Shown piece by piece: positions 17,817 to 36,181 of a stretch of DNA of 64,000 bases (positions are counted from its first letter, which is position 1; every line of letters starts with the position of its first letter). The stretch spans positions 25,753-89,752 of the forward strand of contig CAWHNN010000022.1 in the NCBI GenBank assembly GCA_963830815.1, written 5' to 3'. A program made the translations under genes and the position numbers. Source of the stretch: an uncultured Acidobacteriota bacterium (GTDB lineage Bacteria > Acidobacteriota > Vicinamibacteria > Vicinamibacterales > 2-12-FULL-66-21). Under the pieces are notes generated by a model. The model was not told where the DNA came from. It saw only the letters and a list, made by a program, of their open reading frames with translations, and made no database searches.

Positions 17817-18577
17817 GGTTGTTGACCTGCGCGGCGGTACGTCGGCGGCTGGCAGCCTTTCACGATCGCGAACTGGGCGTGGGCGAGATGATCGCCTTCG
17901 AAAGCCACCTCAAGGACTGCCCGCCCTGCGCCGGTGAGCTGGCCGAGCTCCAGAACATCGGCGGCCTCCTGCGGATCACGGCGGCGTCCGCGCCGGCCGA
18001 CGACGAGTGGGCGGGCCTCGCGCCCGGCGTCGTGAGCCGGATGTGCGCGGAGAATCACGAGTCGCTCCGGGCGCGCATCGGCCGTGTCTTCGAAGACATG
18101 CACCTCGTCTGGATCGCGCTCGCGTCGACGACGGCGACGTTCCTGTGCGGCGCGATTGCCCTCGGCACGCTGCAATTCGCTTCTCCCAAGCGCTTCGACT
18201 CGATGGCGGCGGTGATTGCAGTGATGGCCGCGCCGTCGGGCTCTGATCTGAATCCGGCGCGTCTCGACGGCCGCTACCGCTTCCCGAGCGTGCCGCAGGG
18301 CGGAGTGGTGCAGCGGACGCTCGAAAGCACGGCGCTCGCCGACAGCGTTTCGGAAGCCGATACGATGCTGGCCGTGTCCGCGGTCGTCACGCGCGAAGGC
18401 CGGGTGTCGGATCTGTTCGTGCTCGCCAACGATCACCAGGGCCGGCAGGTGTCGAGCATTCTCGACGCGATCTCCCAGACGCGGCTGCAGCCGGCGGAGC
18501 TCGCGGGTTCGCCCGTTGCCGTGAACCTCGTCTGGCTGCTCGCCCAGACCACCGTCAAGCCCAAGAGCCGGTCGTAG
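17813..18577 (+). CDS. zf-HC2 anti-sigma factor, single-pass membrane protein
   Basis: ATGA overlap with the sigma gene. H-x3-C-x2-C motif (HLKDCPPC), a central TM helix (LVWIALASTTATFLCGAIALG) and an extracytoplasmic C-terminal domain. Confidence 0.75.
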   Translation: MRLLTCAAVRRRLAAFHDRELGVGEMIAFESHLKDCPPCAGELAELQNIGGLLRITAASAPADDEWAGLAPGVVSRMCAENHESLRARIGRVFEDMHLVWIALASTTATFLCGAIALGTLQFASPKRFDSMAAVIAVMAAPSGSDLNPARLDGRYRFPSVPQGGVVQRTLESTALADSVSEADTMLAVSAVVTREGRVSDLFVLANDHQGRQVSSILDAISQTRLQPAELAGSPVAVNLVWLLAQTTVKPKSRS

Positions 18578-18623: not shown

Positions 18624-20933
18624 TCAACGCTGCAGCATCGCAACGGCCGTGGCGACGTTGTTCATGGCATCGGTCGCACGGATGATGACGCTCTTGCCGC
18701 CCTCGCTGTCATCGACGGCGACTTCGAAATCCTCTCGCCTCGAGTCCGGGATCCCGTCTTTCGGATAGACCATGCGCCACCGGCTGGCATCGAGCGAGTA
18801 CTCGACTCTTTGAACGGCGGACTGATCGTCCCGCACCACGAAGTTGATGGTCGACCGCGTGCCCGTTCGCGTCACCGGCTGGATCTCGATCCGCGGCGAG
18901 GTGTTGTCGATGTCGAAATTCGCGCTCTCGAGATCGCCGGCGAGCGCCGTCGTCGGGGCATTCGCCGGCGCATCCGAAGCGGTCACGCGGACGACGTAGG
19001 TGCCATCTGGAACTGACGTCGTGTCCCAGACGAAGATCGCGTCCCAGATCCCGCGCTTCAAGGCCTTCCACGCCGTGTCGCCTTCGCGCCTGTACGAAAC
19101 GTCGTACTGCAGCCGATCGCCGTTGGCGTCTTCGGCCTTCCACACGAACGTCTGCAGGCCCTTCTGGTAGATGCGCCGGCCAAGCGGAGGGGGCGGCGGA
19201 AGCGTTCCTCCCGGGCCGGTCTGACTCTGCGCCGGCGTCTTGCCGTCGGACGTGTTGTCTTCGAACCCGGCAATCTCGATCTCGCTGCCGGAGAACGGAC
19301 GTTGAAAGACCACGCCAGGCGGATGGACTGTGATGGTCGCGACCTCGGGCCTGAGGTTGCGTGGCAGATAAGCGGCTGTCACCGACGTCAGGATTGGTGA
19401 TGCGCTGTCGCCGGCGAGCGTCGCACGCCACTGGAGATAACGCGCGTTTGGACTGGCGATTTGTTCGCCTTCAGCATTGCTGTACGGCTTCGACCACGCG
19501 CTCCAGGTTTCGTCCGGCGTCGCGGTGTTGCCGGAGCGCGACAGCAGCTGGATCTGGCCAGGCTTTGCCGACGCCCGCCACCTGATAACACCCCAGCTCG
19601 CGACTGTGCCGGCATCGCGGACGTCGGACTCGTAGCTGCCCTTGGCCGCGGGGTTGGCGGACAGCGCGAAAATCTTGCCCGGATTGCTCGTCGCCCCCAG
19701 GACCCGGCCCGACGGCTCGCGCATCAGCGCGGTGATCTGTCGCGCCGCGGCGCGCGAGAGCAGAGTGGCTCGCGCCGGATCGCCGGTGACACGGAAGATC
19801 TTTCCTTCCGGGCCGGTGCCCACGAGCAGGCTCCCGCCTGGCTCGACGAGCAGATCGAATGGCGAATCCTCGCCGGTTTCCCAGTAGGTGTCCCACAGGC
19901 CGTTCGGCCGGATGCGATAGACGGCGCCGCGATTGCTCCGCCGCGACGCACCGGATATCACCGGAGTGCCGGCAGACGCTGCCGATCCGGCATCAACCAC
20001 GGAGATGGCGGTGATCTCGGTCGATACCGTTGGCACAGGGGCGCGGCCGCTCTCGGTCGTACTCGGCAGCAGCGACCGATCTTCGGTGACCGCAGTCGAT
20101 CCGCTCACCGCCGCGGCGTAGAGCGTGCCATCGTCTGCCAGCCGCAGCGCGTGAATCTCCTTGTAGGGTGAGTCGAGGAGGACGAATGCCTTGCCCGAGG
20201 CGTCGATCCGGAAGACGCGTCCAGGAGACTCGGTGCCGGCGAGCAGGTCGCCCGAGGGCGCGAACGCCAGCGAGACGACGTTGGTCGAACTGGTCTTGTA
20301 GAAGCGGGTGCCTTTGCCGTCCGGCGTGATCTTGTAGATGACGCCCTTGTCGCCGGTGGCGGCGAAGAGGTTTCCCGCGCGATCGAGCGCGAGCGCCCAG
20401 ATGTATTTGTCTTCCGGATCGAAGAACGTCCGCGAACTGCCGTCGGCATTCACCTGATAGATCTTGCCGTCGGGAGACGTCGCGACATAGAGACCGTTGT
20501 TCGGCGCGGGCACGATGGCGTGGACTTCGAGCTCGGTCGCGTCGAAGAACGTCGCGACCTTGCCGTCCTTGCCGATCTTGAGCACCTTGCCCTCGTTCCC
20601 GGTTCCCGCCCACAGCGTGCCGTCGGCGCCGGTGGCGACTGTCCACAGGAACGGCGCGGCGGTCTCGGCGACGAGCGACGTCGAGGGGCCGAGGAACATG
20701 CGGCCGTCGCTGTCGACAGAGAGATCTTCGACGTCGCCTTTCAGGAAGTCGCTCTGGGTCGAAACCGTCCAGAACGTCGGCACGGCGCCGACAAGCGCGG
20801 CGGACGCGAGCCCGACGATCCCGGCGATCGACGCGAGACGAGATCGCCGGCTTGTCGAAGAGCGGGGGAGTGCGCGCGCGCCGCGACAGACCACGACGAG
20901 AAAGAGTTCGGAACTCCATGCGCATAGCTTCAA
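18624..20933 (-). CDS. secreted beta-propeller repeat protein with a C-terminal Ig-like domain (function unknown)
   Basis: Intact 769-aa ORF. Signal-anchor-like N-terminus, then many GxDGxxY/W...G.GKV/IY..-type propeller blades. The C-terminal beta-sandwich-like region reads TYVVRVTASD...VEYSLDASRW. The start codon is uncertain. Confidence 0.6.
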   Translation of the reverse strand: MKLCAWSSELFLVVVCRGARALPRSSTSRRSRLASIAGIVGLASAALVGAVPTFWTVSTQSDFLKGDVEDLSVDSDGRMFLGPSTSLVAETAAPFLWTVATGADGTLWAGTGNEGKVLKIGKDGKVATFFDATELEVHAIVPAPNNGLYVATSPDGKIYQVNADGSSRTFFDPEDKYIWALALDRAGNLFAATGDKGVIYKITPDGKGTRFYKTSSTNVVSLAFAPSGDLLAGTESPGRVFRIDASGKAFVLLDSPYKEIHALRLADDGTLYAAAVSGSTAVTEDRSLLPSTTESGRAPVPTVSTEITAISVVDAGSAASAGTPVISGASRRSNRGAVYRIRPNGLWDTYWETGEDSPFDLLVEPGGSLLVGTGPEGKIFRVTGDPARATLLSRAAARQITALMREPSGRVLGATSNPGKIFALSANPAAKGSYESDVRDAGTVASWGVIRWRASAKPGQIQLLSRSGNTATPDETWSAWSKPYSNAEGEQIASPNARYLQWRATLAGDSASPILTSVTAAYLPRNLRPEVATITVHPPGVVFQRPFSGSEIEIAGFEDNTSDGKTPAQSQTGPGGTLPPPPPLGRRIYQKGLQTFVWKAEDANGDRLQYDVSYRREGDTAWKALKRGIWDAIFVWDTTSVPDGTYVVRVTASDAPANAPTTALAGDLESANFDIDNTSPRIEIQPVTRTGTRSTINFVVRDDQSAVQRVEYSLDASRWRMVYPKDGIPDSRREDFEVAVDDSEGGKSVIIRATDAMNNVATAVAMLQR

Positions 20934-20991
20934 TCAGTGCCACAGATAACACGGACAACACGGATAGGAGGGCAGGTGTGAATGAGGTCCA

Positions 20992-22869
20992 TCAGCGGCC
21001 GGAACCGCTGTCGACTTCGATCGTCAGCAGTCGCGACCCGGAGACCGCCGAATCCATCGGCAGCTCCCATTCGCCGACGGTGGCGCTGCGCATCGGCGTG
21101 AAACTGCCGCCGTTGCGGTCGCTCTCGAGCACCGACAGGACCGACGGCGGCAATGCCGCCATGGCTTCGCCGTTGACCACGGCGCCGGGCGTGCCGCTCA
21201 GCAGCCTGACGTAGACGCGATTGTTGCGCCGCGTGTCGTTCAGCAGCCGCAGCAGCTGGGTGACCGTCTGCGGCTCGAGCGTCCGCCGGGCGTCGCGTTG
21301 TTCGAGGACGTTGAGCTGACGGCCGTCGCTGACGAGGATCGACAAGCGGCCGGAGGCGTTCGCCGGAATCTCGATCGGAATCGTCGAGATCTTCTCCTCG
21401 CCGCGGAAGCTCTTCGTCAGGATCTTGAGCGGCGTCGTCCGGCCGGCACGCGGCCGGATGTCGTCGAGCCAGACGCGCTCGATCGTGACGCGCCGCGGCA
21501 CTTCCGCCGACGAGATCGTGACGTCCAGGCTTTCAATCGTGATCGGCTCGATATCGTTGCCGAGCAGCATTGTCAGCGGACCGGCAATGGCGGTCGAGGC
21601 GCCGAGGATCGGTGAGTCGCCGGCAAAGACATCGTCGAGCACCAGCGGGTCGTGCCCCTTGATCGTCGCGCGGCTCTTGACGGCAATCGTCGACGCGCCG
21701 AACTGGCGTTCGTACGCCGCCAGCGTATTGAACATCGACACGTAGGCGATGAGCGGCGTGAACATCTGATCGTTGACGATCGCGTACTTGAACGTCCGCT
21801 TCTGCGTGTCCTGCGCGCCGCCAGCGGGCGTCCCATCAGCCGACCGTTCGATCGTCACCGTCATCGGCACGAGAGCCGGGCCCTTGCCGAGCGTGCCGGC
21901 GATGGCCGTCGCGCGATCCTGTGTCATCGTGCCGATGGTTTCGCCCATCGACGAGATCTTGAAGGACGTCAGCAGGCTGGGCAGGATCGTGTAGACGTAG
22001 GCCCGCGTCATCGGGAACTGCGTCGGGCCCAGGTTGTAGAAAGGATGGCCGAACGCGTAGATGCGATCGCCATCGATGTGGGTGATGGTGCCGGTCGCGC
22101 CCATGTCGATGTCGCCGCTTGCGAGCGCGACGCCGATCGCGTCGCCTTCGCGCAGCGGTCCGGCGGGCGCCGCCGGCTGGCTGCCAGCCGTCATGCCGCT
22201 GACCATCGGCGTGAAGCCAGCGTCGCGAAACGCGCCTGACACGAGGTCGACAGTCTCCGGCTCGAAGCCGCCCATGATGAGCGGAACCGAGATCGGACGG
22301 AGCATCGAACCGATCTGCGCACCAGCACTTGGCGAAATGCCGATGGACTGCACGTCGGCCGGGCGGCGCGCGAATGGCGTCAGACGAGCCGATGCCGCGG
22401 CAAGAGTGGCCGCCAGACTCTCGCGCGTGATTGGCAACTCGAGCCGGGCCTGGCCGGTGCCGGCGCGGCGCGGCAGCGGTGTCGCGTCCGTCATCTCCGC
22501 GATGGGCGTGATGCCGGCGATAGGTTCCTTCGAGAAGTTGCCGATCGAATACGAGACGGCGCCGACGAGCCGGTTGTCGATGTAGACAGGGCTGCCGCTC
22601 ATTCCCTGCGCGACACCAGACTCGGCGAGCCCGGCGCCCTCGAGGCGGGCCAGAATCAGGTCCCGTCGCGGCCCTTGAATGTTGCGGAGGACGCCGAGGA
22701 TGTGGACCTTGAAATCCTTGAGCTCAGTGCCCTCGAAAACCGTTCGCCCGACGCCCACCATGCCCGGCCGTACTTCGCTGAGGGGCATCAGTGCAGTCGC
22801 CGCCGGCAAGGAAACCGTAAGCAGGCCCGCGAGCAGGCCAATGACAGCCGCCTGGATCCGTAACTTCAT
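20992..22869 (-). CDS. peptidase S55 (SpoIVB-type serine peptidase) family protein, secreted
   Basis: Intact ORF. I prefer the start at MKLRIQAAVIGLLAGLLTVSLPAATA (signal peptide); the ORF track extends to 22929. The motif GVAQGMSGSPVYIDNRLVGAVSY is typical of the S55 catalytic serine region. Confidence 0.75.
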   Translation of the reverse strand: MKLRIQAAVIGLLAGLLTVSLPAATALMPLSEVRPGMVGVGRTVFEGTELKDFKVHILGVLRNIQGPRRDLILARLEGAGLAESGVAQGMSGSPVYIDNRLVGAVSYSIGNFSKEPIAGITPIAEMTDATPLPRRAGTGQARLELPITRESLAATLAAASARLTPFARRPADVQSIGISPSAGAQIGSMLRPISVPLIMGGFEPETVDLVSGAFRDAGFTPMVSGMTAGSQPAAPAGPLREGDAIGVALASGDIDMGATGTITHIDGDRIYAFGHPFYNLGPTQFPMTRAYVYTILPSLLTSFKISSMGETIGTMTQDRATAIAGTLGKGPALVPMTVTIERSADGTPAGGAQDTQKRTFKYAIVNDQMFTPLIAYVSMFNTLAAYERQFGASTIAVKSRATIKGHDPLVLDDVFAGDSPILGASTAIAGPLTMLLGNDIEPITIESLDVTISSAEVPRRVTIERVWLDDIRPRAGRTTPLKILTKSFRGEEKISTIPIEIPANASGRLSILVSDGRQLNVLEQRDARRTLEPQTVTQLLRLLNDTRRNNRVYVRLLSGTPGAVVNGEAMAALPPSVLSVLESDRNGGSFTPMRSATVGEWELPMDSAVSGSRLLTIEVDSGSGR

Positions 22870-22959
22870 GTGTCTGCAAGGGAAAGGGAAGCTCTCTCCA
22901 GTTATAAGGAGCAACTGGTTGCAGGTCAAGGAGAAAGGTGCTATCGTTCGCTCCTCGGC

Positions 22960-23049
22960 ATGACTCTCTTTATCAGCGCGCGCCGTAACCTTGGGACGAA
23001 GGCGTCCTATTGGTGGTGGTACGCGTGCGCTGAGGGGGCCATCCGCTAG
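22960..23049 (+). CDS. candidate leader peptide MTLFISARRNLGTKASYWWWYACAEGAIR (29 aa), with tandem Tyr-Trp-Trp-Trp-Tyr codons
   Basis: ATG at 22960 and TAG at 23047. TAT TGG TGG TGG TAC occupies 23008..23022. Too short for the ORF track. Immediately followed by antiterminator/terminator elements upstream of the aro-trp operon. No clear Shine-Dalgarno sequence. Confidence 0.55.
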   Translation: MTLFISARRNLGTKASYWWWYACAEGAIR

Positions 23050-23093
23050 CCTGCCAACGGCAGGATACAGGATCTCGACAAAGCCTCCTCAGC
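23029..23093 (+). promoter_or_regulatory. candidate antiterminator pairing of a transcription attenuator
   Basis: GCTGAGGGGGC (23029..23039, inside leader codons 24-27) is complementary to GCCTCCTCAGC (23083..23093, the 5' arm of the terminator): 11 bp with one G.U. The box GCTGAGGGGGC is duplicated at 23100..23110. The hairpin CCTGCC-AAC-GGCAGG lies at 23050..23064. Confidence 0.5.
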
Positions 23094-23123
23094 CTCAGTG
23101 CTGAGGGGGCTTTTTCGCTTTTC
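23081..23123 (+). terminator. intrinsic terminator (attenuator terminator) upstream of aroDE
   Basis: 13-bp stem, AAGCCTCCTCAGC / GCTGAGGGGGCTT (one G.U), with a 6-nt loop CTCAGT, followed by TTTTTCGCTTTT. It lies 29 nt upstream of the aroDE ATG at 23152. Confidence 0.7.
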
Positions 23124-23151
23124 TGGGACTTTTTCCGGTGCTGCGACGCTG

Positions 23152-24641
23152 ATGAATAAACCGCAACTGTGCGTGACGGTCACGGGGCCGACGATGGAGG
23201 ATCTCCGGCGCAGCCGGGATGCCGCCATCGACGCCGACCTCGTCGAGCTGCGGCTCGACCTGGTGGAGCGCCCCGATGTTGCCGGAGCGCTTCACGGCCG
23301 CCGGACGCCAGTCATCGTGACGTGCCGTGCATCGTGGGAGGGCGGACGGTTCATCGGCAGCGAGGAAGAACGGCGGCGGATACTCGAATCGGCGATCGCG
23401 CTCGGTGCCGAATACGTCGACGTCGAAGCGGCCGCTGAGTTCGCGCCGCAGCTCATCGCCTCCCGTTCCGGCCGCGGCATCGTCGCGTCATCCCACATCT
23501 TCGATCCACTCCAGTCGATCTCCGTGCTCGCTTCGCCGCCGTGCGGGCTCTCGGCGCCGAGGTGTCGAAGCTTGCGGTTCAGGTCGAATCGCTTTCGAGC
23601 AGCCTGCCGCTCTTCGAAATCGGCGCGGAGGAGTCAGGACGCGACGGCCGACGGGCATGTGCTGCTGGCGATGGGCAATCAGGGCGTCGCCACGCGGATT
23701 CTTGCGGCGCGGCTGCGGAACCGCTGGACGTTTGCCGGAGACGGCGTGGCCCCCGGACAAATGCCGGCTTCGCGCCTGCTGCAGGAGTATCGATATAGGC
23801 AGATCGACGCCGAGACGGCGCTCTACGGCGTGGTCGGAAACCCGATCCTGCACTCGAGGTCGCCGGTCATGCACAACGCGGGGTTCGGCGCGCTCGGCCT
23901 GAACGCCGTGTACGTGCCTCTCGAAGCGCGTGACGCGGCCGACTTCATCACGCTTCGCCGAGCGCCTCGGACTGCGCGGCGCAAGCATCACGGCACCGTT
24001 CAAGCTCGCACTCATGCCGCGCGCTGACGAGATAGACGAGTTGGCGGTCGCGCGTCGGGCGCGATCAACACGCTGACCATTCGCGACGGCAAGTGGCTGG
24101 GCGCCAACACGGACGTCGAGGGGTTTCTTTCGCCGCTGCTTCAGCGCACCGCGCTCGCCGGGCACGCGCGTATCGATCCTCGGTTCAGGCGGCGCGGCGC
24201 GCGCTGTCGCGGTCGCGGCGGCGAGCCGGCAGGCCGTCGTGACGGTCGCGGCGAGAACGCGAGGGCGCGCGGGCCATCGCCGCACTGGTTGGCGGCACGG
24301 TCGGGGACTTTCCGCCGCAACGCGGCAGCTGGGACGTGCTCGTCAACGCCACGCCGGTCGGCAGCCACAAGATGCCCGGCACGCCAATGGCGGGTGCGGC
24401 GCTCGACGGCGACGTCGTTTTCGATCTCGTGTACGCGCCACTCGAAACCGAGCTTCTACGCGACGCACGGACTGCTGGCTGCCGCACGATCGACGGCCTC
24501 GAGATGCTGATCGCGCAGGCGGAGCGGCAATTCGAACTGTGGACCGGGCAGCGGCCGCCCGCCGGACTCTTCGCCGCCGCGGCAACCAACAGCAGTGGCC
24601 TGGCGGCAACGGCCGATAAAGCGACAGGAAAAGGACTGTGA
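23152..24641 (+). CDS. bifunctional 3-dehydroquinate dehydratase (type I) / shikimate dehydrogenase fusion; at least four frame interruptions
   Basis: AroD part: MNKPQLCVTVTGPTMEDL...LVELRLD...GAEYVDVE, with MRALGAEVSKLAVQ in ORF 23541... AroE part: YGVVGNPILHSRSPVMHNAGFGALGLNAVYVPLEA, and the C-terminus NATPVGSHKMPG...ETELLRDARTAGCRTIDGLEMLIAQAERQFELWTG (ORF 24336..24641). Confidence 0.85.
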
Positions 24642-26144
24642 AGCCGGACATGAAGCAGACAACGTACGAAGAGTTCGTGGAGCTCGCGCGGCGCGGCACG
24701 TTCGTGCCGGTCGTCAAGGAGATCATCGCCGACCTGCTGACGCCGGTCTCGGCGTTCCTCAAGATCGCCGAGCACTCCGACTACGCCTTTCTCTTCGAGA
24801 GCGTGGAGGGCGGCGAACAGGTCGCGCGCTATTCGTTCCTCGGCAAGGATCCCTTCCTCGTGCTGCGCGCCGAGGACGGTAGAACGACGATCGAGCAGTC
24901 AGGGACGACGACCGAGCAGCGAGGAAGCGTTCGTTCCGGCGCTGCGCCGGCTGATGGCCGACCTGCAATCGCCGTTCGTGCCGGGGCTGCCGCGATTCAC
25001 CGGCGGCGCCGTCGGTTTCATCGGCTATGACGCCTCGCCGATCTTCGAACCGGCGCTCGAAGGGCGCGTGGAAGGAAGCGGGCGCCAGGACCGGCGAGAC
25101 CGCTGGCAAGGAAGACGACGCCGGCTTCATGCTGTTCGACACCGTGCTGGCGTTCGATCACGTGAAGCACAGGATTCTGATCATCGCCAACGCCCGGATC
25201 ACGGCCGACGAGGATCTGCGCGCGCTCTATCAGTTCGCGTGCGCCAAGATCCAGTTCCTCGAACGCGAGCTCGAGCGCGGGTTGTCGCAGCCCGAGCCCG
25301 AAGACGCGGCCGAGCTCGACGTCCGCGCCAACCAGACGAAGGACGTCTTCGAAAGCGGCGTGCGGACGATCAAGGAGCGGATCGCCGCCGGCGACATCTA
25401 CCAGGCGGTCCTGTCGCAGCGGTTCGAGGCCGACGTCAAGGCCGATCCCTTCACCGTGTATCGCGCGCTTCGCCACGTCAATCCGTCGCCGTACATGTAT
25501 TTCATGCGCATGGGCGGCCTGGCGATCGTCGGATCGTCGCCGGAGATGCTCGTCCGCGTCGAAGGACGACGGGTGGAGACGCACCCGATTGCCGGCACGC
25601 GGCCGCGCGGCACGAATGACGAAGAGGACCTGCGGCTGGCAGAGGAGCTCAAGCGCAACGAGAAGGAGCGCGCCGAGCACGTCATGCTCGTCGATCTCGG
25701 GCGCAACGATCTCGGGCGCGTCTGCGAATACGGGTCCGTCCGCGTGCCGCAGTACATGTCCCTCGAGCGCTACTCGCACGTCATGCATCTCGTCTCCACC
25801 GTCGATGGCCGCCTCGCCGAGGATCGCGACCATCTCGACGCGCTGGTCGCGTGCTTCCCGGCCGGCACGGTGTCCGGCGCGCCGAAGATCCGCGCGATGC
25901 AGATCCTCTCCGAGCTCGAGCCGACGCGCCGCGAGATCTACGCCGGCGCCGTCGGCTACGTCGACTTTGCCGGCAATCTGGACTTCTGCATCGCGATTCG
26001 CACCATCACGATTCGAGACGGCCGCGCCCACGTGCAGGCGGGCGCAGGAATCGTCGCGGACTCGAACCCCGCGGCGGAATACGAGGAGACGCGCGACAAA
26101 GCGCGGGCGATGCTGCAGGCACTCGCTATGGCGGAAGCGGGACT

Positions 26145-26148
<4 letters not shown>
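24638..26148 (+). CDS. trpE: anthranilate synthase component I; two frame interruptions (about 24930 and about 25070)
   Basis: GTG start overlaps the aroDE stop (GTGA). LLTPVSAFLKI, FTGGAVGFIGYD, then an uninterrupted C-terminal block of about 350 aa with IAGTRPRG, LVDLGRNDLGRV and GAVGYVDFAGNLDFCIAIRT. Confidence 0.9.
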
Positions 26149-26703
<555 letters not shown>

Positions 26704-26707
<4 letters not shown>

Positions 26708-27733
26708 TGTTCGCCGCGCTGCTCGAAAAGCTCCAGCGTCGACAGGACCTCACGGTCGAGGAATCGGCCGCGGCGATGGAAGAGATCATGGAAGGCCGCG
26801 CGCAGAGCGCGCAGATTGCCGGGCTGCTCATCGGGCTCGCGATGAAGGGTGAGCGTCCGTCCGAGGTCGTCGGGCTGGCGCGTACCATGCGCTCGCGGGC
26901 GACCCGCCTGTCGCGGCAGTTCTCTGACGTCTTCGATACGTGCGGCACCGGCGGCGACCGCGCGCACACGTTCAACGTCTCGACCGTCTCCGCGCTCGAT
27001 CGTCGCGGCCTGCGGCGTCAGGGTCGCGAAACACGGCAACCGGTCGGTGTCCAGCCGCTGCGGCAGCGCCGACCTCTTCGAGGCGCTTGGCGTCAACATC
27101 AGCGCCACGCCGGCGGTGGTCGAGCGCTGCCTGGAGCAGGCCGGCATCGCGTTCTTCTTCGCGCCCACCTTCCATCCGTCGATGCGCCACGCTGGCCCGA
27201 CGCGAAAAGATCTCGGCGTGCGCACGGCATTCAATCTTCTTGGACCGCTGACGAATCCCGCGGGCGCCGAGCGGCAGCTGGTCGGCGTGCCCCGGCCGGA
27301 ACTGACCGAGCTCGTCGCGCGCTCGCTCGGGATGCTGGGATCCACGCGCGCCTGGGTCGTGCACGGCGCTGACGGGCTCGACGAGATCTCGACGACCGGG
27401 TACACGAAGGTGTCGGAGTATCGAGACGGGGCAGTCAACACGTTCTATATCCATCCGGCTGACGTCGGCCTGCCGAAAGCGGCGCCAGAGGCGTTGCGCG
27501 GCGCCGATGCCGCGGAGAATGCGCGCATTGCCCGCGACGTGCTGAATGGCACCGCAGGCGCGCCGCGCGACATCGTGCTGCTCAATGCCGGCGCGTCGCT
27601 GCTCATCGCTGGCGCGGTACCCGATCTGTCCACTGGCATCAGCCGCGCCGCCGCCGCCCTCGAGTCCGGAGCAGCCGCCGCGACACTGGAGCAGTTGACC
27701 GCGATCTCGAATGCCGCGCCGGAGGCAGCGTGA
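26704..27733 (+). CDS. trpD: anthranilate phosphoribosyltransferase; one frame interruption near 26995
   Basis: [18 protein letters not shown] in one frame, then [30 protein letters not shown]...GPLTNPAG in ORF 26849..27733. Confidence 0.9.
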
Positions 27734-28577
27734 TGTCGTCAACCGCGAGCCACAGCGCACGACCGGCCTCGAGCTCCGATCTGCTCGAGACGATCGTCGC
27801 CGCTACGCGGCATTCCGTCGAAGCCGCATGCGGACGGCATCGGCCGAGGAGCTGCTGCGTCGCAGCGCGTATGTGCCGAACGGCGCGCGCCTTTCGATAC
27901 GCGCTGCGCTCGTCTCCGGCGCCGCGGGTCATCGCGGAGTGCAAGCGCCGCTCGCCGTCGAAGGGAATCCTGCGCAAGGACTACGACGCCGGCCGCACAC
28001 GCCGCGGCATATGCGGCGGCGTGCCGCGGCGGCAATCTCGGTACTGACCGAGCCGACGTTCTTCGACGGCAGCCTCGATCACCTCGCGCAGGTCCGCGCA
28101 GCGGTCGCCGTACCGCTGCTGCGCAAGGATTTCATCGTCACATGAATACCAGCTGGCGGAAGCTGTCGCCAACGGCGCGGATGCGGTGCTCCTGATTGTG
28201 GGCGCGCTCGACGACGAGGACCTCCGCGCGCTCAGCAGCAAGGCGGCTGCGCTTGGACTTGCGACGCTTGTCGAAGTCCACGATCGGGAAGAGCTCGCTC
28301 GGGCACTCGACGCCGGCGCCGACGATCGTCGGCGTCAACAGCCGCAACCTGCGCACGTTGAGCGTCGATCAGCGGCGTCCTCGAAGATCTCGCGCCGTCG
28401 ATTCCCGCGGCTGTCACCGCCGTCGCGGAGAGCGGTATCCGCACGACCGCCGATATCGAGCGGCTGAGCGCCGCCGGCTACTCGGCGTTCCTCGTCGGCG
28501 AGCGGCTCATCGTCGAGCCGGATCCGGCGCGGCGCTGCGAGCGTTGCGGACGGCAGCGTGTCGCAGGGGCCGCATGA
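27730..28577 (+). CDS. trpC: indole-3-glycerol phosphate synthase; at least four frame interruptions, including a TGA at 28143..28145 inside the conserved KDFI..YQ motif
   Basis: [32 protein letters not shown]...[33 protein letters not shown]...[22 protein letters not shown] and [13 protein letters not shown] are each in different frames. Confidence 0.9.
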
Positions 28578-29207
28578 CGCGCGTGAAGATCTGCGGCATC
28601 CGGCGCGTTGAAGACGCGGTCCTGGCTGTCGAGCTTGGCGCGGACGCGATCGGGTTCGTCTTCTGGCCACGGAGCCCACGGTTCATCGATCCCTTCGCAG
28701 CGCGCGCGATCGTCAGGGCGTTGCCGCCCTTCGTGACGACCGTGGGGGTGTTCGTCGATCAGCCCGTGGCATTTGTCATCGGGGTGGCGCAGCTGCTGGG
28801 CCTTGGCGCCATTCAGCTGCACGGGAGCGAGGACGCCTGCGGCATATGCCGGTGCCGCGGCGCGCATCATCAAGTCGGTTGCGGTCGTCGAAGGCGGCGA
28901 CTGCATGCCGGTAGTGCGTGATGTGCCGCTCAACGCGACCGTTCTTCTCGACGCGCACGACCCGATCAAGCGCGGCGGAACCGGCCGCGCCATCGACTGG
29001 AAGCAGGCGGCCGCAGCGGCGAAGGTGCGGCCAGTCATTTTGTCGGGGGGATTGAATGCCGATAACGTCGGCGACGCGATCGCCGCGGTCTCTCCGTACG
29101 CCATCGACGTCTCGTCCGGCGTGGAGTCGGAACCGGGAATAAAGGACGCGGGCAAGTTGCGGACGCTTTTCGCCGCACTTGCTCAGCGCGAAGCCAGAAC
29201 CATATGA
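28574..29207 (+). CDS. trpF: phosphoribosylanthranilate isomerase; one frame interruption near 28840
   Basis: [36 protein letters not shown]..., then ...LLDAHDPIKRGGTGRAIDW...ILSGGLNADNV...IDVSSGVE. ATGA overlaps at both ends. Confidence 0.9.
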
Positions 29208-30479
29208 ATTCTTCTTCACCTCCTGCTCGAATCCTGTCAAGTCCTTCTTCAAGTCCTTCTTTCGGCCAGCGCGATCCAGATATCCGCGGCTACTACGGAC
29301 CCTACGGCGGGCGCTTCGTCCCCGAGACGCTCGTCGCGCCGGTGGCTGAGCTCGAAGCTGCATACTTCGCGGCGCGCAGCGACCGCTTCGTTTCGCGAAG
29401 AACTGAGCGGGCTGCTTCGCCACTATGTCGGACGCCCGACGCCGCTCTTCGAAGCCAGGCGTCTGTCGTCGGCGCTCGGCGGCGCGCGCCTGCTGCTCAA
29501 GCGCGAGGATCTGGCGCATACCGGCGCGCACAAGATCAACAACGCGCTCGGCCAGGCACTGCTCGCCAAGCGGATGGGGAAGCGCCGGGTCATCGCCGAG
29601 ACCGGAGCCGGGCAGCACGGCGTTGCCACGGCGACAGCCTGCGCGCTCCTCGGGCTCGTCGTGCGACGTCTACATGGGCGCCGACGACATGGAGCGGCAG
29701 GCGCTCAACGTTTTCCGCATGGAGCTGCTCGGGGCCACGGTTCGCAAGGTCGACAGCGGCAGCCGCACGCTGAAGGACGCGATCAACGAAGCGATGCGCG
29801 ATTGGGTGGCCACGGTGGCTGACAGCTACTACCTTCTGGGCTCGGTGCTGGGCCCGCACCCGTACCCGTTGATGGTCCGCGAGTTCCAATCGGTCATCGG
29901 CGAGGAGGCGAAGCGGCAATGCCAGGAGCTCCTCGGCGGCCTGCCCGACGTCGTCGTCGCCTGTGTCGGCGGCGGTAGCAACGCGCATGGGGATCTTCGA
30001 CGCCTTCATCGCCGAGCCGAGCGTGCGCCTCATCGGCGTCGAAGCCGGCGGCCATGGCATCACGCCGGGCGAGCACGCGGCGCGATTCGCCGGCGGCAGT
30101 TCCGGAGTGCTGCAGGGGACCAAGACCTACGTCCTCCAGGATGCCGACGGAAATATCGAGCTGACGCATTCCATCTCGGCCGGCCTCGACTACGCCGCCG
30201 TCGGTCCCGAGCATGCGTGGCTTCACGACTCGGGCCGCGCCGAGTACGCGTGGATTGGCGATGACGACGCGTTCAGCGCGTTTCAACGGCTGGCGCGGGA
30301 AGAAGGGATCATTCCGGCGCTGGAGTCGGCACACGCCATCGCGCACGCCATTCGTATCGCGCCATGGCTCGGCGCCGACGATGTCGTGCTCGTGAATCTG
30401 TCGGGGCGCGGCGACAAGGACGTGATGAGCGTGCAGAAGCGGCTGGCGACGGCGCCGCGAGAAGGCCGAGGCGCAGTGA
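29204..30479 (+). CDS. trpB: tryptophan synthase beta chain; at least three frame interruptions; no in-frame stop before trpA in the final frame
   Basis: [51 protein letters not shown] and [10 protein letters not shown] are spread over four ORF-track frames. A TGA at 30477 overlaps the trpA ATG but is out of frame with the last segment. Confidence 0.9.
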
Positions 30480-31228
30480 TGTCGCGGCTGGCACAGACGT
30501 TCGAGCGACTGCGCACTGCCAAGCGCGGCGGCCTCGTCACCTACCTGACCGCCGGCGATCCTGACGCCGATCGTTCCGTCGATCTCCTCGTCGCCGTCGC
30601 GCAGGCAGGCGCGGACGTGCTCGAAGTCGGCGTGCCGTTCTCCGATCCGCTGGCGGACGGGCCGGTGATCCAGCGCGCCAGCGAAAGGGCGCTCGCCGGC
30701 GGCATGACCTGCGCGGCGTCCTCGAGGTCGTTCGCCGCGTCCGGGCCGAGGTCGACACGCCCATCGTTCTCTTCACCTACGCCAACCCGGTCGTGCGGAT
30801 GGATCCGCAGGTCTTCGCGCGGACTGCTGCCGACGCCGGCGTCGACGGCGTGCTGATCCTCGACTATCCCGTCGAGGAGGCGGAGCCGCTGCGCACGCCG
30901 CTGCTCGACGCCGGCCTCGATCCGATCTTCCTGATCAGCCCGACGACGAGCGAAGAGCGGATTCGAAAGTCGGCCGAGCTCGGCGCCGGATTTCTCTACG
31001 TGATCTCGCGGCTTGGTGTCACGGGCGTGCGCGATCGGCTGCCCGAGGACGTCGGCGAGCTGATGGAGCGCGTTCGCGCGCTGCGCGGATCTGCCGGTGG
31101 CGCTCGGCTTCGGGATCGCGCACCCGTCGCAGGTCGCCGAAGCCTGCCGCGTGGCCGATGCCGCCGTCGTCGGAAGCGCGCTGGTCAACGTCGTGGCAGA
31201 GCACGCCGCGCTCCGCAAAGGTGAGTGA
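30479..31228 (+). CDS. trpA: tryptophan synthase alpha chain; two frame interruptions
   Basis: [11 protein letters not shown]...[20 protein letters not shown], then VLFTYANPV...[11 protein letters not shown]...[13 protein letters not shown], then LPVALGFGI...AAVVGSALV. Confidence 0.9.
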
Positions 31229-31249
31229 GCATGCAAGCGAGTATGTGCG

Positions 31250-31627
31250 GTGGCTGAAGAACAGCCTGTAGACGGCCTCGCCGAGCTGCGCCGGAAGATC
31301 GACGCGCTCGATGAGCAGCTCGTGCGCCTGCTCAACGCCCGCGCGGCCTGCGCGCTCGAAATCGGCCGCGTCAAGAAGACACGCCGGGCTGCCGATCTAC
31401 CAGCCGTCGCGGGAGACCGAGGTGCTCGGGCACGTCCAGTCGATCAATCCCGGGCCGCTCGACGACGGGGCCGTGCGGCGGCTGTTCGAGCGCATCATCG
31501 ACGAGGCCGGCGGCTGGAGCGGATTGCGGAAGGGCATGTCGGCAGAAGACGGAATCGCATCGAGCGCAAGATCGCGCTGGTAGGACGGCCGTCCATCGGG
31601 CCGGCCGGTAATGCTGTGAAACAATAG
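31250..31627 (+). CDS. chorismate mutase (AroQ class); one or two frame interruptions; 3' end uncertain (31583 or 31627)
   Basis: LAELRRKIDALDEQLVRLLNARAACALEIGRVKK, then PIYQPSRETEVLGHVQSINPGPLDDGAVRRLFERIIDEA in the neighbouring frame. Confidence 0.75.
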   Translation: MAEEQPVDGLAELRRKIDALDEQLVRLLNARAACALEIGRVKKTRRAADLPAVAGDRGARARPVDQSRAARRRGRAAAVRAHHRRGRRLERIAEGHVGRRRNRIERKIALVGRPSIGPAGNAVKQ

Positions 31628-31635
31628 AGGATCCA

Positions 31636-32719
31636 ATGGTTGTGGTGATGAAGGAACGCGCGGAACGACGAGCAGGTGCAGAAGGTGATCGCCCAGCTCG
31701 TCGAGATGGGCTTCGACGTGCATCGCTCGACGGGCGCGCTCAAGACCGTCATCGGCGCGGTCGGCGGCAATCGACAGTTCGACACCGCGCTGATCGAGGT
31801 GATGGAGCGGCGTGCAGGAAGTCCACCGGATCACCGAGCCGTACAAGCTCGCCAGCCGCACGTTCCGTCCCGAGAATACCGTCATCACCATCGGCGACCT
31901 CCGCATCGGCGGCGACGAAGTCATCGTCATGGCCGGGCCCGTGCTCGGCTGAGACCGAAGAGCAGGTCGAAGCCACGGCCGCCGCGGTGAAGAACGGCGG
32001 GCGCGAAGGTGCTTCGCGGCGGCGCGTTCAAGCCGCGCAGCTCACCGTACAGCTTCCAGGGGCTCGGCGAGGAGGGCCTGCGGATGCTGCGTTCGGCGCG
32101 CCGATCGCCACAACCTCAAGCTCGTGTCCGAGGTGATGGACATCAGCCAGCTCGAGCTCATCGAGAAGTACTCGCACATCCTGCAGGTCGGCGCGCGCAA
32201 CATGCAGAACTTCACGCTGCTGCGCGAGCTCGGCCACGCCAAGCACGCCGGTGCTGCTTAAGCGCGGCATCTCGGCGACGATCGAAGAGTGGCTGCTGTC
32301 GGCCGAGTACATCCTGGCCGGCGGCAACATGAACGTGATGCTGTGCGAGCGCGGCATCCGCACGTTCGAGAGCTACACGCGCAACACGCTCGACATCTCG
32401 GCGATTCCGGTGGTGCAGCAGCTCTCGCACCTGCCGGTGCTCGCGGATCCGAGCCACGGCACGGGACGGCGCGACAAGGTGACGCCGATGGCGCGCGCGG
32501 CGGTGGCCGCGGGCGCCGATGGATTGATCATCGAGGTCCACAACGATCCGGATCGCGCGCTGCAGCGATGGCGCACAGTCGCTCTTCCCGGCGCAGTTCG
32601 ATCGCCTGATGGCCGAACTGCGGATCATCGCGCCGGCGATCGGGCGCAGCATCTGCCTCGAGCCGGTCAGCCGGCGTGGCTGGGGCACAGCTGAGGCAAT
32701 GTTGAATGCTGAATGCTGA
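31636..32719 (+). CDS. 3-deoxy-7-phosphoheptulonate (DAHP) synthase, type I-beta, with an N-terminal ferredoxin-like/ACT-like regulatory domain; at least five frame interruptions
   Basis: MVVVMKE...[20 protein letters not shown] (regulatory domain), [46 protein letters not shown] and [14 protein letters not shown]...[10 protein letters not shown]. The stop lies inside the heptamer repeat. Confidence 0.85.
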
Positions 32720-32774
32720 ATGCTGAATGAATTCAGCATTCACTTCAGCACTCAGCATTCAGCATTCAGCATTG
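32698..32774. repeat. imperfect palindrome built from tandem GAATGCT / AGCATTC heptamers (copy 1 of 2)
   Basis: AATGTT(GAATGCT)x3 GAATGA | ATTCAGCATTCACTTCAGCACTC(AGCATTC)x2 AGCATTG. Core stem TGCTGAAT-GA-ATTCAGCA at 32721..32738. AT-rich relative to its surroundings. A related copy lies at 45751..45832. Confidence 0.8.
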
Positions 32775-32777
32775 CAC

Positions 32778-33652
32778 ATGTTTCACAAGATCGCGATCGT
32801 CGGGCTTCGGGCTTATCGGCGGATCGGTCGCGCTGGCGCTGTCGTGAGGCCGCGGCCGGCGTGCCGGATCGTCGCGATCGATCGCGCGGCGGTCGTCTCG
32901 GAGGCGCTGGGCGCGGGCGCGGCTGACGCCGGAGGGGACGACCTCGCACTCGCGGACGGGGCCGATCTGATCGTGCTGGCAGCGCCGGTCCGGCAGAACA
33001 TCGGCCTGCTCGCACGATCTGCCGTCGTGCGTTCGCGGTAACGCGCTGGTCACGGATGTCGGCAGTACCAAGCGTGCCGATCGTCGCGGCCGCGAGCCAC
33101 CTGCCGCCGCGCCTGCGATTTGTCGGCGGGCATCCGCTCGCCGGCGCCGCTACTGGCGGCTTTGACGCCGCACGCGCCGATCTCTTTCGCGGCCGGCCGT
33201 GGATTTTGACGCCCGCACGGGACAGTCAGCGAGGGAGCGTGACGTCGAGCGGCTGACGGCATTCGTGTCGCAGTTCGGCGCGCTCCCGAAAGCGATGGAC
33301 GCCGATCGCGCACGATCGGCTGATGGCCTATATCAGCCACCTGCCGCAGCTCGCCGTCAGCGCGTTGATGCAGGTCGTCGGGGAGCGCGCCGGACGCGAG
33401 GGGCTGCGCCTGGCCGGGACGGGACTTGCGTGACACGACGCGGCTGGCGTCGAGCCCTGCTGGCACCTGGCGCGACGTCACCGCGACCAACGTCGACGCG
33501 CTGCGGCGCGGCCATCGACGACCTCACCCGGCCCTGCAGCGCCTGAAGACCGACTTCACGGACGGCCTGGAGCTGGAGCATGTGTTCGACGATGCCGCGT
33601 CCTGGAAGCGGACGCTCGACGAGTTCAGACGGACGAGCGCGGCGAATCATGA
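32778..33652 (+). CDS. tyrA: prephenate/arogenate dehydrogenase; at least six frame interruptions
   Basis: MFHKIAIVGL, then (skipping c32808) GLIGGSVALAL, which restores the GxGxxG motif. Further segments: RIVAIDR...ADLIVLAAPV, VTDVGSTK, FVGGHPLAG, ISHLPQLAVSALM and GLRDTTRLASS. Confidence 0.85.
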
Positions 33653-34217
33653 GGCGGAAGGTCATGGCCACGCGCACGTATCTCGAGATGACGGACCGGT
33701 CGCGCGCTGCGCCCTGGCGCGGGTGCCGGTGAGCACCATTGCAGGTGACGCACGCCGCGAGCCTTGCGAGCCCGAATTCTGGCGCTACCTGTATTCGACC
33801 GTCGGTGAGGCCTATCGCTGGGTGGACCGGCTGCCATGGTCCGAGGACGAGATCCGCGCCTACCTCGACGATCCGGCCGTATCGCTGTGGGTGATGACAG
33901 TGGACGATGCCATCGCCGGCTATTTCGAGCTGCGCATGCGAACGAGGACGCGAGCATGGAGATCGTCTATTTCGGGCTGCTGCCGCAGTTCACCGGACGC
34001 GGACTCGGCGGATTTCTGCTGACCGGGCCGTCGAGCGCGCATGGACCGCCGGCGCTCGCCGGGTCTGGTTGCACACGTGCAGCTTCGATCACCCGCTGGC
34101 CGTCGCCGAACTACACTGGCCCGCGGCTTCGCGATCTTCAAGACCGAGCAGTCACGTCGCACAGGCCCCGCCAGCCGCCAGCACCGCCCGGATCTGACCT
34201 GCATCCGACCCGGCTAG
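33649..34217 (+). CDS. GNAT family N-acetyltransferase; at least three frame interruptions; 3' end uncertain
   Basis: The ATG forms an ATGA overlap with the best tyrA stop. Segments: EFWRYLYSTVGEAYRWVDRL, MEIVYFGLLPQFTGRGLGGFLL (acetyl-CoA-binding Q/RxxGxG-like motif) and RVWLHTCSFDHP. Confidence 0.6.
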
Positions 34218-34237
34218 AGTCTCCGTCATGATCGCAC

Positions 34238-36181
<1,944 letters not shown>

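Follow-up and report, generated by a model that had tools for sequence, protein, structure and literature searches.

A putative leader-peptide attenuator with a mixed Trp/Tyr codon run upstream of an aro-trp supraoperon in uncultured Vicinamibacterales (Acidobacteriota)

Overview

The 64 000-nucleotide stretch of DNA analysed here (the window; G+C content 66%) comes from an uncultured Acidobacteriota bacterium (contig CAWHNN010000022.1) and carries, in the 282-nt gap between a gene for an S55 (SpoIVB-type) peptidase and the aroD-aroE fusion gene aroDE, an element that is very probably a classical ribosome-mediated leader-peptide transcription attenuator. It would control a single supraoperon, aroDE-trpEGDCFBA-(CM)DAHPS-tyrA, in which CM and DAHPS stand for chorismate mutase and DAHP synthase. 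An attenuator of the trpL/pheL type had been proposed at this site in the original prediction, which was made from the sequence of the window without database searches, and this reading has gained support from the conservation of the element in 80/80 loci, from covarying helices, from maintenance of the reading frame and from the geometry of the leader. On this reading, ribosomes would stall on leader codons and read-through would respond to amino-acid supply.

The closest proteins and loci all belong to metagenome-assembled genomes (MAGs) of Acidobacteriota, mostly labelled Vicinamibacterales, an order that we take to be Acidobacteria subdivision 6 (one of the fetched records bears the label gp6). 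The loci of relatives were fetched by means of the AroDE protein and are the best 80 of 301 aroDE loci at species level, plus the nearest relative, L081 (L numbers denote individual records). They were first screened by translating the 350 nt upstream of aroDE, and in this first pass nearly all of them showed a short open reading frame (ORF) whose product has a run rich in Trp and a C-terminal tail of similar sequence. A covariance model, R1, was built from 61 aligned elements, and the pairing and covariation counts given below rest on the same 61-sequence alignment. Start-codon and promoter spacing were counted in 67 loci, the composition of the Trp/Tyr run in 73 leaders and codon-to-box geometry in 61 loci.

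Architecture of the leader region

The leader ORF (22960–23049, plus strand, as are all leader features below) comprises 29 codons and a stop; it extends from an ATG at 22960 to a TAG at 23047–23049 and encodes MTLFISARRNLGTKASYWWWYACAEGAIR. Its regulatory codons TAT TGG TGG TGG TAC (Tyr-Trp-Trp-Trp-Tyr) occupy positions 23008–23022, and the codon string TAYTGGTGGTGGTAY that specifies this run has a single occurrence in the 64 kb (expected number, 0.00). Further downstream, leader codons 24–27 contain the antiterminator box GCTGAGGGGGC (region 2, 23029–23039), which is identical to positions 23100–23110 of the terminator 3′ arm and complementary over 11 consecutive pairs to GCCTCCTCAGC (23083–23093) in the terminator 5′ arm. 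The ORF, the codon run, the duplicated box and the 11-bp antiterminator pairing had all been described in the original prediction, and each was recovered at the same position, as was the 282-nt gap in which they lie. The intrinsic terminator ahead of aroDE, previously given a 13-bp stem, was likewise detected by a terminator scan, which extended the stem to 14 bp (23080–23113, with a 6-nt loop). It is followed by the T tract TTTTTCGCTTTT (23111–23122), which ends 29 nt before the aroDE ATG. The 5′ arm (region 3, 23080–23093) is common to the antiterminator and the terminator, and the core of the 3′ arm (region 4, 23100–23113) duplicates the box exactly. All relatives have a T-rich tail, and within 23000–36000 the leader terminator is the sole strong terminator-like site.

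The region 22955–23125 folds to a minimum free energy (MFE) of −87.6 kcal/mol (z = −6.2), and none of 200 shuffled sequences folds as well. In the MFE fold the early part of the ORF provides region 1 (22964–22983), a pyrimidine-rich strand that would serve as the anti-antiterminator: residues 22964–22968 and 22973–22983 form helices with 23023–23038. The early ORF also pairs with the box in the consensus folds of two sub-clades, and in folds of the nascent leader from the 61 loci an average of 8.4 of the 11 box bases are paired. The box thus has a better partner than the segment 23001–23008, which had been suggested earlier as a weak region 1 and which gives way to 22964–22983 on the strength of the MFE fold and the sub-clade consensus folds.

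Two smaller hairpins complete the predicted structure. The helix GGGACGA-AGGC-GUCCUA (22992–23009; 7 bp in the MFE fold) ends at the first Tyr codon and belongs to the consensus structure in near relatives; it may possibly act as a pause or spacer hairpin. The other, CCTGCC-AAC-GGCAGG (23050–23064), had been noted from the sequence and is present in the MFE fold within the antiterminator loop. Its CCTGC...GCAGG halves can be recognized by eye in near relatives and are absent in distant clades. RNAalifold applied to the segment from the box to the 5′ arm returned only the 11-bp antiterminator helix, with no inner hairpin at 23050–23064, and we therefore treat this hairpin as a clade-specific spacer structure.

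Conservation and covariation

The model R1 gives one full-length match per locus, always directly upstream of aroDE, in 80/80 loci with upstream DNA. Scores range from 34.7 to 103 bits, and the ∼20 loci outside the training alignment score 35–94 bits. A search of 1.46 Mb of loci together with the rest of the window found no second copy, the matches on the minus strand being to the palindromic terminator stem only. The conserved set consists of a σ70 promoter, an in-frame start codon, two to four Trp codons usually accompanied by Tyr, a purine-rich box and an intrinsic terminator; six loci carry variant runs such as W-R-Y-W and W-R-L-Y-W. An alignment of orthologues had been proposed as a check on the original prediction, and it shows the W/Y codons, the box and compensatory changes to be conserved upstream of aroDE. 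When compared with the closest relative, L081, the leader region (22860–23309) differs at 4 of ∼450 positions, against ∼3–10% for the flanking genes, and we count this low divergence as probable selection on the leader.

Pairing in the alignment is extensive for both of the competing helices. In the antiterminator helix (box with 5′ arm) 92.6% of cells are paired, compared with 40–56% when the partner is slid along the sequence; none of 500 shuffles reaches the observed pairing and none reaches its covariation score. Pairs 38–106 and 39–105 swap A-U and G-C with zero unpaired cells. In the terminator helix 94.9% of cells are paired and seven pairs have changed on both sides. Moreover, the two helices vary together, as a C in place of T in the 5′ arm is always accompanied by a G in both the box and the 3′ arm. 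Such three-way covariation is the signature to be expected if one strand pairs alternately with two partners. The box often makes a G-U pair where the terminator has a Watson–Crick pair; by keeping these G-U pairs it leaves the antiterminator weaker than the terminator, with mean energies over the 61 loci of −15.7 kcal/mol for the duplex of box and 5′ arm and −23.6 kcal/mol for the terminator hairpin.

Probable translation of the leader ORF and its promoter

The homologous ORFs of relatives span 24–45 codons, and their peptides are weakly conserved except for the aromatic run and the box-encoded residues. In 54 loci a start codon at the position fixed by the −10 element shares the frame of the Trp run, whereas the other two frames account for 7 and 1. 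The distance from the first Trp codon to the box is 19, 22, 25, 28 or 31 nt in 59/61 loci, so that insertions and deletions come in threes, and the Tyr codons alternate between TAT and TAC among relatives, which is synonymous variation. These patterns suggest that the leader ORF is translated, without a Shine–Dalgarno sequence and in a near-leaderless fashion.

The window promoter consists of a −35 hexamer TTGCAG (22919–22924) and, after a 17-nt spacer, a TATCGT hexamer preceded by TG, which together form an extended −10 (TGC-TATCGT, 22939–22947) whose pattern TGnTAnnnT is kept across loci. Among the nearest relatives the −35 reads TTGCAG, TTGCGG or TTGCCG; in most of the remaining loci it is TTGACA. 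The spacer is 17–18 nt, and the promoter takes two forms: most loci have TTGACA-18-(TG)TAnnnT, and the sub-clade of the window has TTGCAG-17-TGcTATCGT. A generic promoter scan of 22000–24000 reported no promoter, because TTGCAG and TATCGT together score 8/12, under its cut-off; it is conservation across loci that reveals the promoter, and it bears out the earlier suggestion of a near-leaderless transcript starting from TTGCAG-N17-TATCGT.

The first in-frame ATG, GTG or TTG lies 9–12 nt downstream of the −10 in 51/67 loci, and the leader start codon is TTG in 22 and GTG in 19 of the 67. A Shine–Dalgarno sequence is absent because this spacing leaves no room for one. Transcription probably starts just before the ATG at 22960, which would give a 5′ untranslated region (UTR) of ∼2–6 nt. 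TTG and GTG starts so close to the −10 may indicate how initiation works in this lineage, and the leader provides indirect evidence on the signals in use there, namely the promoter TTGACA-18-TGnTAnnnT, a start codon 9–12 nt past the −10 and frequent TTG starts.

The S55 peptidase gene has a divergent promoter of canonical appearance (TTGACC-17-TATAAC, 22901–22929, minus strand), which shares one base with the leader −35. The block AGTTATAAGGAGCAACTGGTTGCAGGTCAAGGAGAAAGG is common to both promoters and kept in relatives, so that the two are back-to-back and overlapping. In one sub-clade (L002, L004–L006, L008, L010, L013, L014, L017–L019 and L023) an insertion of ∼55 nt, situated ∼60 nt ahead of the leader start, has come between the −10 and the block of the divergent promoter. 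It brings in a new consensus TTGACA −35, and the leader promoter therefore appears to have been rebuilt there.

Geometry and proposed mechanism

In the mechanism that we propose, a σ70-type promoter (TTGCAG-17-TGcTATCGT) would start the transcript a few bases before the ATG at 22960 and the leader would be translated in a near-leaderless manner, with four segments of the RNA in competition: region 1 (22964–22983), region 2 (23029–23039), region 3 (23080–23093) and region 4 (23100–23113) with its T tract. When Trp-tRNA is scarce, a ribosome would stall between regions 1 and 2, on the three TGG codons and perhaps also on the Tyr codons at either side of them. The stalled ribosome would end just short of the box, which could then pair with region 3 once that is transcribed; this pairing would block the terminator and allow RNA polymerase to read into aroDE. 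When Trp-tRNA is plentiful, the ribosome would run on to the TAG at 23047 and cover most of the box, leaving regions 3 and 4 to form the terminator, and transcription would stop at about 23115–23123. If the leader is not translated, region 1 would pair with the box, which should also favour termination.

The spacing of these parts is compatible with this scheme. The ribosome was assumed to shield ∼15 nt on the 5′ side of the A-site codon and ∼12 nt on its 3′ side. In the 61 loci the box starts 19–31 nt past the first Trp codon and never less than 10 nt from the last one, and no more than 13 nt separate the end of the box from the stop codon (in three loci the stop codon falls within the box). 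With the assumed footprint, these distances mean that a ribosome stalled at Trp would leave the box free and one at the stop codon would overlap it, as the original prediction had reasoned for the window.

Constrained folds, which had been put forward as a check, behave in the predicted manner. For window RNA that ends before the 3′ arm, the MFE structure contains the full 11-bp antiterminator with a ribosome placed on the second Trp codon and 10 bp of it with a ribosome on the third; the antiterminator forms only in part with a ribosome on the first Trp codon and is lost with one on the stop codon. The complete window RNA forms the terminator, and the terminator is the full-length MFE structure in 58/61 loci.

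Several observations weigh against this interpretation. In ribosome-free RNA that ends before the 3′ arm, the antiterminator is already the MFE structure, both in the window and in 37/61 loci, so that the default in untranslated RNA would depend on folding kinetics; this default (1:2 and 3:4 pairing leading to termination) is the weakest point of the mechanism. The compensatory changes are clustered on the tree (G-C at pair 39–105 occurs in 16 sequences, essentially one near clade) and therefore represent few independent events, and the tolerance of G-U pairs lowers the stringency of the pairing test. A 5′ UTR of ∼2–6 nt combined with TTG starts, as seems to apply to nearly a third of the relatives (22/67), amounts to an unusual mode of initiation: non-AUG starts on transcripts almost devoid of a UTR are unusual by comparison with the leaderless mRNAs of E. 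coli. Between the last Tyr codon and the box there are only 10 nt, and a ribosome stalled on that codon would cover part of the box, so that this Tyr may contribute little. Lastly, the window assembly is noisy downstream, with many insertion/deletion errors or frameshifts; the leader itself matches L081 and L001.

Amino acids probably sensed and alternative explanations

Given that Trp codons occur in every relative (2–4 per leader), sensing of Trp is very likely. Sensing of Tyr as well is plausible, as the operon contains tyrA and genes of the shared pathway, and the operon content as a whole (trp genes, DAHP synthase, chorismate mutase, tyrA) matches the leader codons. An attenuator of the same design that responds to Trp only, the Tyr and occasional Phe codons being passengers kept for RNA structure or peptide context, is nevertheless a serious possibility, to which we would give somewhat less than an even chance. 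It would account for the universal presence of Trp beside the absence of Tyr from the run in 11/73 leaders (Phe is found in the run in 8/73), and for the position of the distal Tyr, which in many loci is separated from the box by just 10 nt, so that a ribosome stalled there would partly cover the box. It also has a precedent in the aroR leader of Corynebacterium glutamicum, with its run Phe-Tyr-Phe, where transcription is unaffected by Tyr availability (PMC11802643). It accounts less well for the occurrence of Tyr in or beside the run in 62/73 leaders, against a background of ∼2% in genes, for the survival of Tyr in rearranged runs (YWWWY, WWYW, WRWYW, WRYW), for tyrA and the shared-pathway genes in the operon, and for a codon preference in which the run has 62 TAT and 33 TAC whereas genes use ∼73% TAC (Fisher p ∼8e-11, ignoring kinship, the counts being phylogenetically non-independent). 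Further in the opposite direction, the single near-leaderless leader, often started by TTG, could be a combined aromatic amino-acid sensor for the whole Acidobacteriota supraoperon, a proposal that we consider rather unlikely. Trp and Tyr codons would then both give productive stalls within the stall window, stalls in the Phe-rich early ORF could mask region 1 and thereby add sensing of Phe, and the terminated RNA of ∼160 nt could act in trans, by analogy with rhizobial rnTrpL. Phe makes up 8.4% of the N-terminal residues of the leaders, against ∼3.5% in genes; only 24 of 83 Phe codons overlap region 1, and the enrichment may therefore partly reflect the pyrimidine-rich composition that this region needs.

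Explanations that dispense with an amino-acid-sensing ribosome fit the data far less well. An independent small gene or small RNA with its own terminator, or an upstream ORF that aids reinitiation downstream, would involve no amino-acid switch and seems very improbable. Released leader products can have functions of their own, as described for rnTrpL and peTrpL of Sinorhizobium, which reportedly can act in trans (PMC6614838, PMC7298713), and leader genes near structural genes have been proposed to help reinitiation (PMC4833913). Yet, aside from the aromatic run and the residues encoded by the box, the peptide shows little conservation; the box and the terminator arm covary, which a small gene with a terminator does not require, and the element is found always and only ahead of the aro-trp operon. 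As for reinitiation, the leader stop and the aroDE ATG are separated by 102 nt and by a strong terminator, whereas the spacing discussed for such cases is 10–16 nt (PMC4833913). The least credible alternative, with hardly any weight in our assessment, is a switch without a ribosome, in which a TRAP-like protein or a T-box-like uncharged tRNA binds the UGG-rich segment and the ORF is incidental. TRAP does control the aro-trp supraoperon of Bacillus subtilis, and the window segment GGUGGUACGCG is superficially like the conserved T-box sequence GGUGGNACCGCG. Such a switch would leave unexplained the maintenance of frame, the start codon fixed relative to the −10, the indels in multiples of three and the bounded position of the stop codon. 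Leaders of the Bacillus TRAP type have 9–11 (G/U)AG repeats spaced 2–3 nt apart that overlap the antiterminator; a site of this type was rejected for the window, as 22954–23100 contains two isolated (G/U)AG triplets with a longest chain of 1. A T-box leader was rejected as well: a scan at E up to 10 produced no T-box match and none above chance level to another Rfam family, and the probable transcription start lies only ∼55 nt ahead of the UGG run, too close for a T-box stem I to fit. The segment GGTGGTACGCG at 23014–23028 also resembles GGUGGNACCGCG. Since no T-box model matches and the resemblance (its ACGCG part) is lost in distant clades, this likeness is probably a coincidence.

Comparison with known systems

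The classical attenuator that we favour for the element is, in its logic, that of E. coli trpL (Rfam Trp_leader, RF00513): both have a short ORF with tandem Trp codons and an intrinsic terminator right before the first structural gene, the 1:2, 2:3 and 3:4 pairings that compete in trpL are predicted to do so here, and in both a ribosome at the stop codon would occlude region 2. The two differ in layout. Here the loop that links regions 1 and 2 carries the Trp codons, whereas those of trpL are inside region 1, and region 2 here is upstream of the stop codon, within the ORF, whereas that of trpL is downstream of it. Here there are also three Trp codons together with Tyr codons, no Shine–Dalgarno sequence and a transcript that is probably near-leaderless, and the operon includes shikimate-pathway and Tyr genes. 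No homology of sequence or structure to trpL was detected, and membership of RF00513 was rejected, with no match at the gathering or at permissive thresholds. More generally, a scan of the 64-kb window against Rfam at the gathering score gave no matches, and a scan of 22800–23250 at E up to 10 gave only chance-level matches to unrelated families.

The closest functional analogues are the leaderless trpL and aroR of C. glutamicum and the trpL of Streptomyces. In C. glutamicum, according to the accounts of Neshat et al. (2014) in PMC11802643 and PMC8079986, both leader peptides are made from leaderless transcripts, trpL preceding trpEGDCFBA and aroR, with its Phe-Tyr-Phe run, preceding an operon for DAHP synthase. 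Like the present element, which is probably near-leaderless, these leaders and that of Streptomyces are described as leaderless leader peptides of high-GC hosts (PMC8079986, PMC11802643). Unlike them, the present element occurs in Acidobacteriota rather than Actinobacteria, has no detectable homology to them and has many TTG starts in relatives; and in contrast to the separate leaders of C. glutamicum, a single leader here joins Trp and Tyr codons ahead of one merged operon of aro, trp and tyrA genes. Leader peptides of leaderless transcripts, and ones with mixed aromatic codons, have been described before from Actinobacteria, which makes the element less novel than the original prediction implied.

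With respect to the operon, the closest analogue is the aro-trp supraoperon of B. subtilis, in which trp genes are likewise set within a larger aromatic operon with tyrA and aro genes and the outcome is likewise a choice between antiterminator and terminator. There, TRAP activated by Trp binds 11 (G/U)AG repeats, whereas here a leader ORF that is probably translated is conserved instead. The present element would resemble the trpL of Sinorhizobium meliloti (rnTrpL/peTrpL) in being a ribosome-dependent Trp attenuator of a soil bacterium whose terminated product is a discrete small RNA; in S. meliloti, trans-acting functions have been documented for both the RNA and the peptide that are set free (PMC6614838, PMC7298713).

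The mechanism is a textbook one that would not surprise a specialist, in a lineage and in the form of an element that Rfam does not catalogue. Vicinamibacterales are among the most abundant soil bacteria and have been little studied; to our knowledge, almost nothing is known of their gene regulation. The element provides a well-supported cis-regulatory RNA for this order, and the gap in the catalogue could be filled by entering it in Rfam from the 80-sequence alignment and model. Its noteworthy features are the near-leaderless arrangement with TTG starts, the run in which Trp and Tyr are mixed, and its place ahead of a supraoperon. The element suggests that classical leader-peptide attenuation reaches another phylum and has arisen there with its own geometry, that is, with regulatory codons between regions 1 and 2, region 2 inside the ORF and initiation of the leaderless type. 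The element overturns no concept and opens no long-standing question. Our literature search found no trp attenuator described for Acidobacteria, although it did not cover the broad survey of Lopatovskaya et al. (2010).

Genomic context

The leader is flanked upstream by the divergent S55 peptidase gene (minus strand, ATG at 22869) and downstream by the regulated operon (23152–33623, plus strand), which begins with the aroDE ATG at 23152. Pfam domains give the order aroD-aroE fusion, trpE, trpG, trpD, trpC, trpF, trpB, trpA, chorismate mutase/DAHP synthase and tyrA (prephenate dehydrogenase). The same order, aroDE-trpEGDCFBA-DAHPS-tyrA, is seen intact in the relatives L021 and L081, and an aro-trp supraoperon downstream of the leader, as originally proposed, is thus borne out by Pfam domains, by tblastn with the intact L021 proteins and by the L021 gene order. 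Compared with those proteins, the operon in the window contains ∼20 frameshifts and every gene is divided among reading frames; within the aligned pieces, protein identity is 45–98%, mostly 55–90%. The alignment of the window with L081 opens 128 gaps over 15.4 kb. Counted in 150-nt bins across 20760–25259, gaps are almost lacking from the S55 peptidase gene and occur about once per 150–200 nt in aroDE-trpE. Most of the extra bases of the window relative to L081 are single C or G residues inserted outside homopolymers. The pattern looks like uneven polishing of a long-read MAG and not like gene decay.

In L021, a gap of ∼300 nt (18050–18353) separates trpA from the DAHP synthase gene, whose product has an N-terminal FXD domain. 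In the window its counterpart comes right after trpA, and a chorismate mutase domain takes the place of FXD. Because of the gap in L021, the region ahead of the DAHP synthase gene was checked for a second attenuator; no terminator was found ahead of the CM/DAHPS gene of the window, trpA running straight into it.

Among the records of relatives, L029, L033, L036 and L043 are titled as Bifidobacteriaceae or Bifidobacterium breve MAGs, yet their aroDE loci and leaders match Vicinamibacterales, and the organism names on these GTDB records look wrong. The leader of L033 is near-identical to those of L028 and L030.

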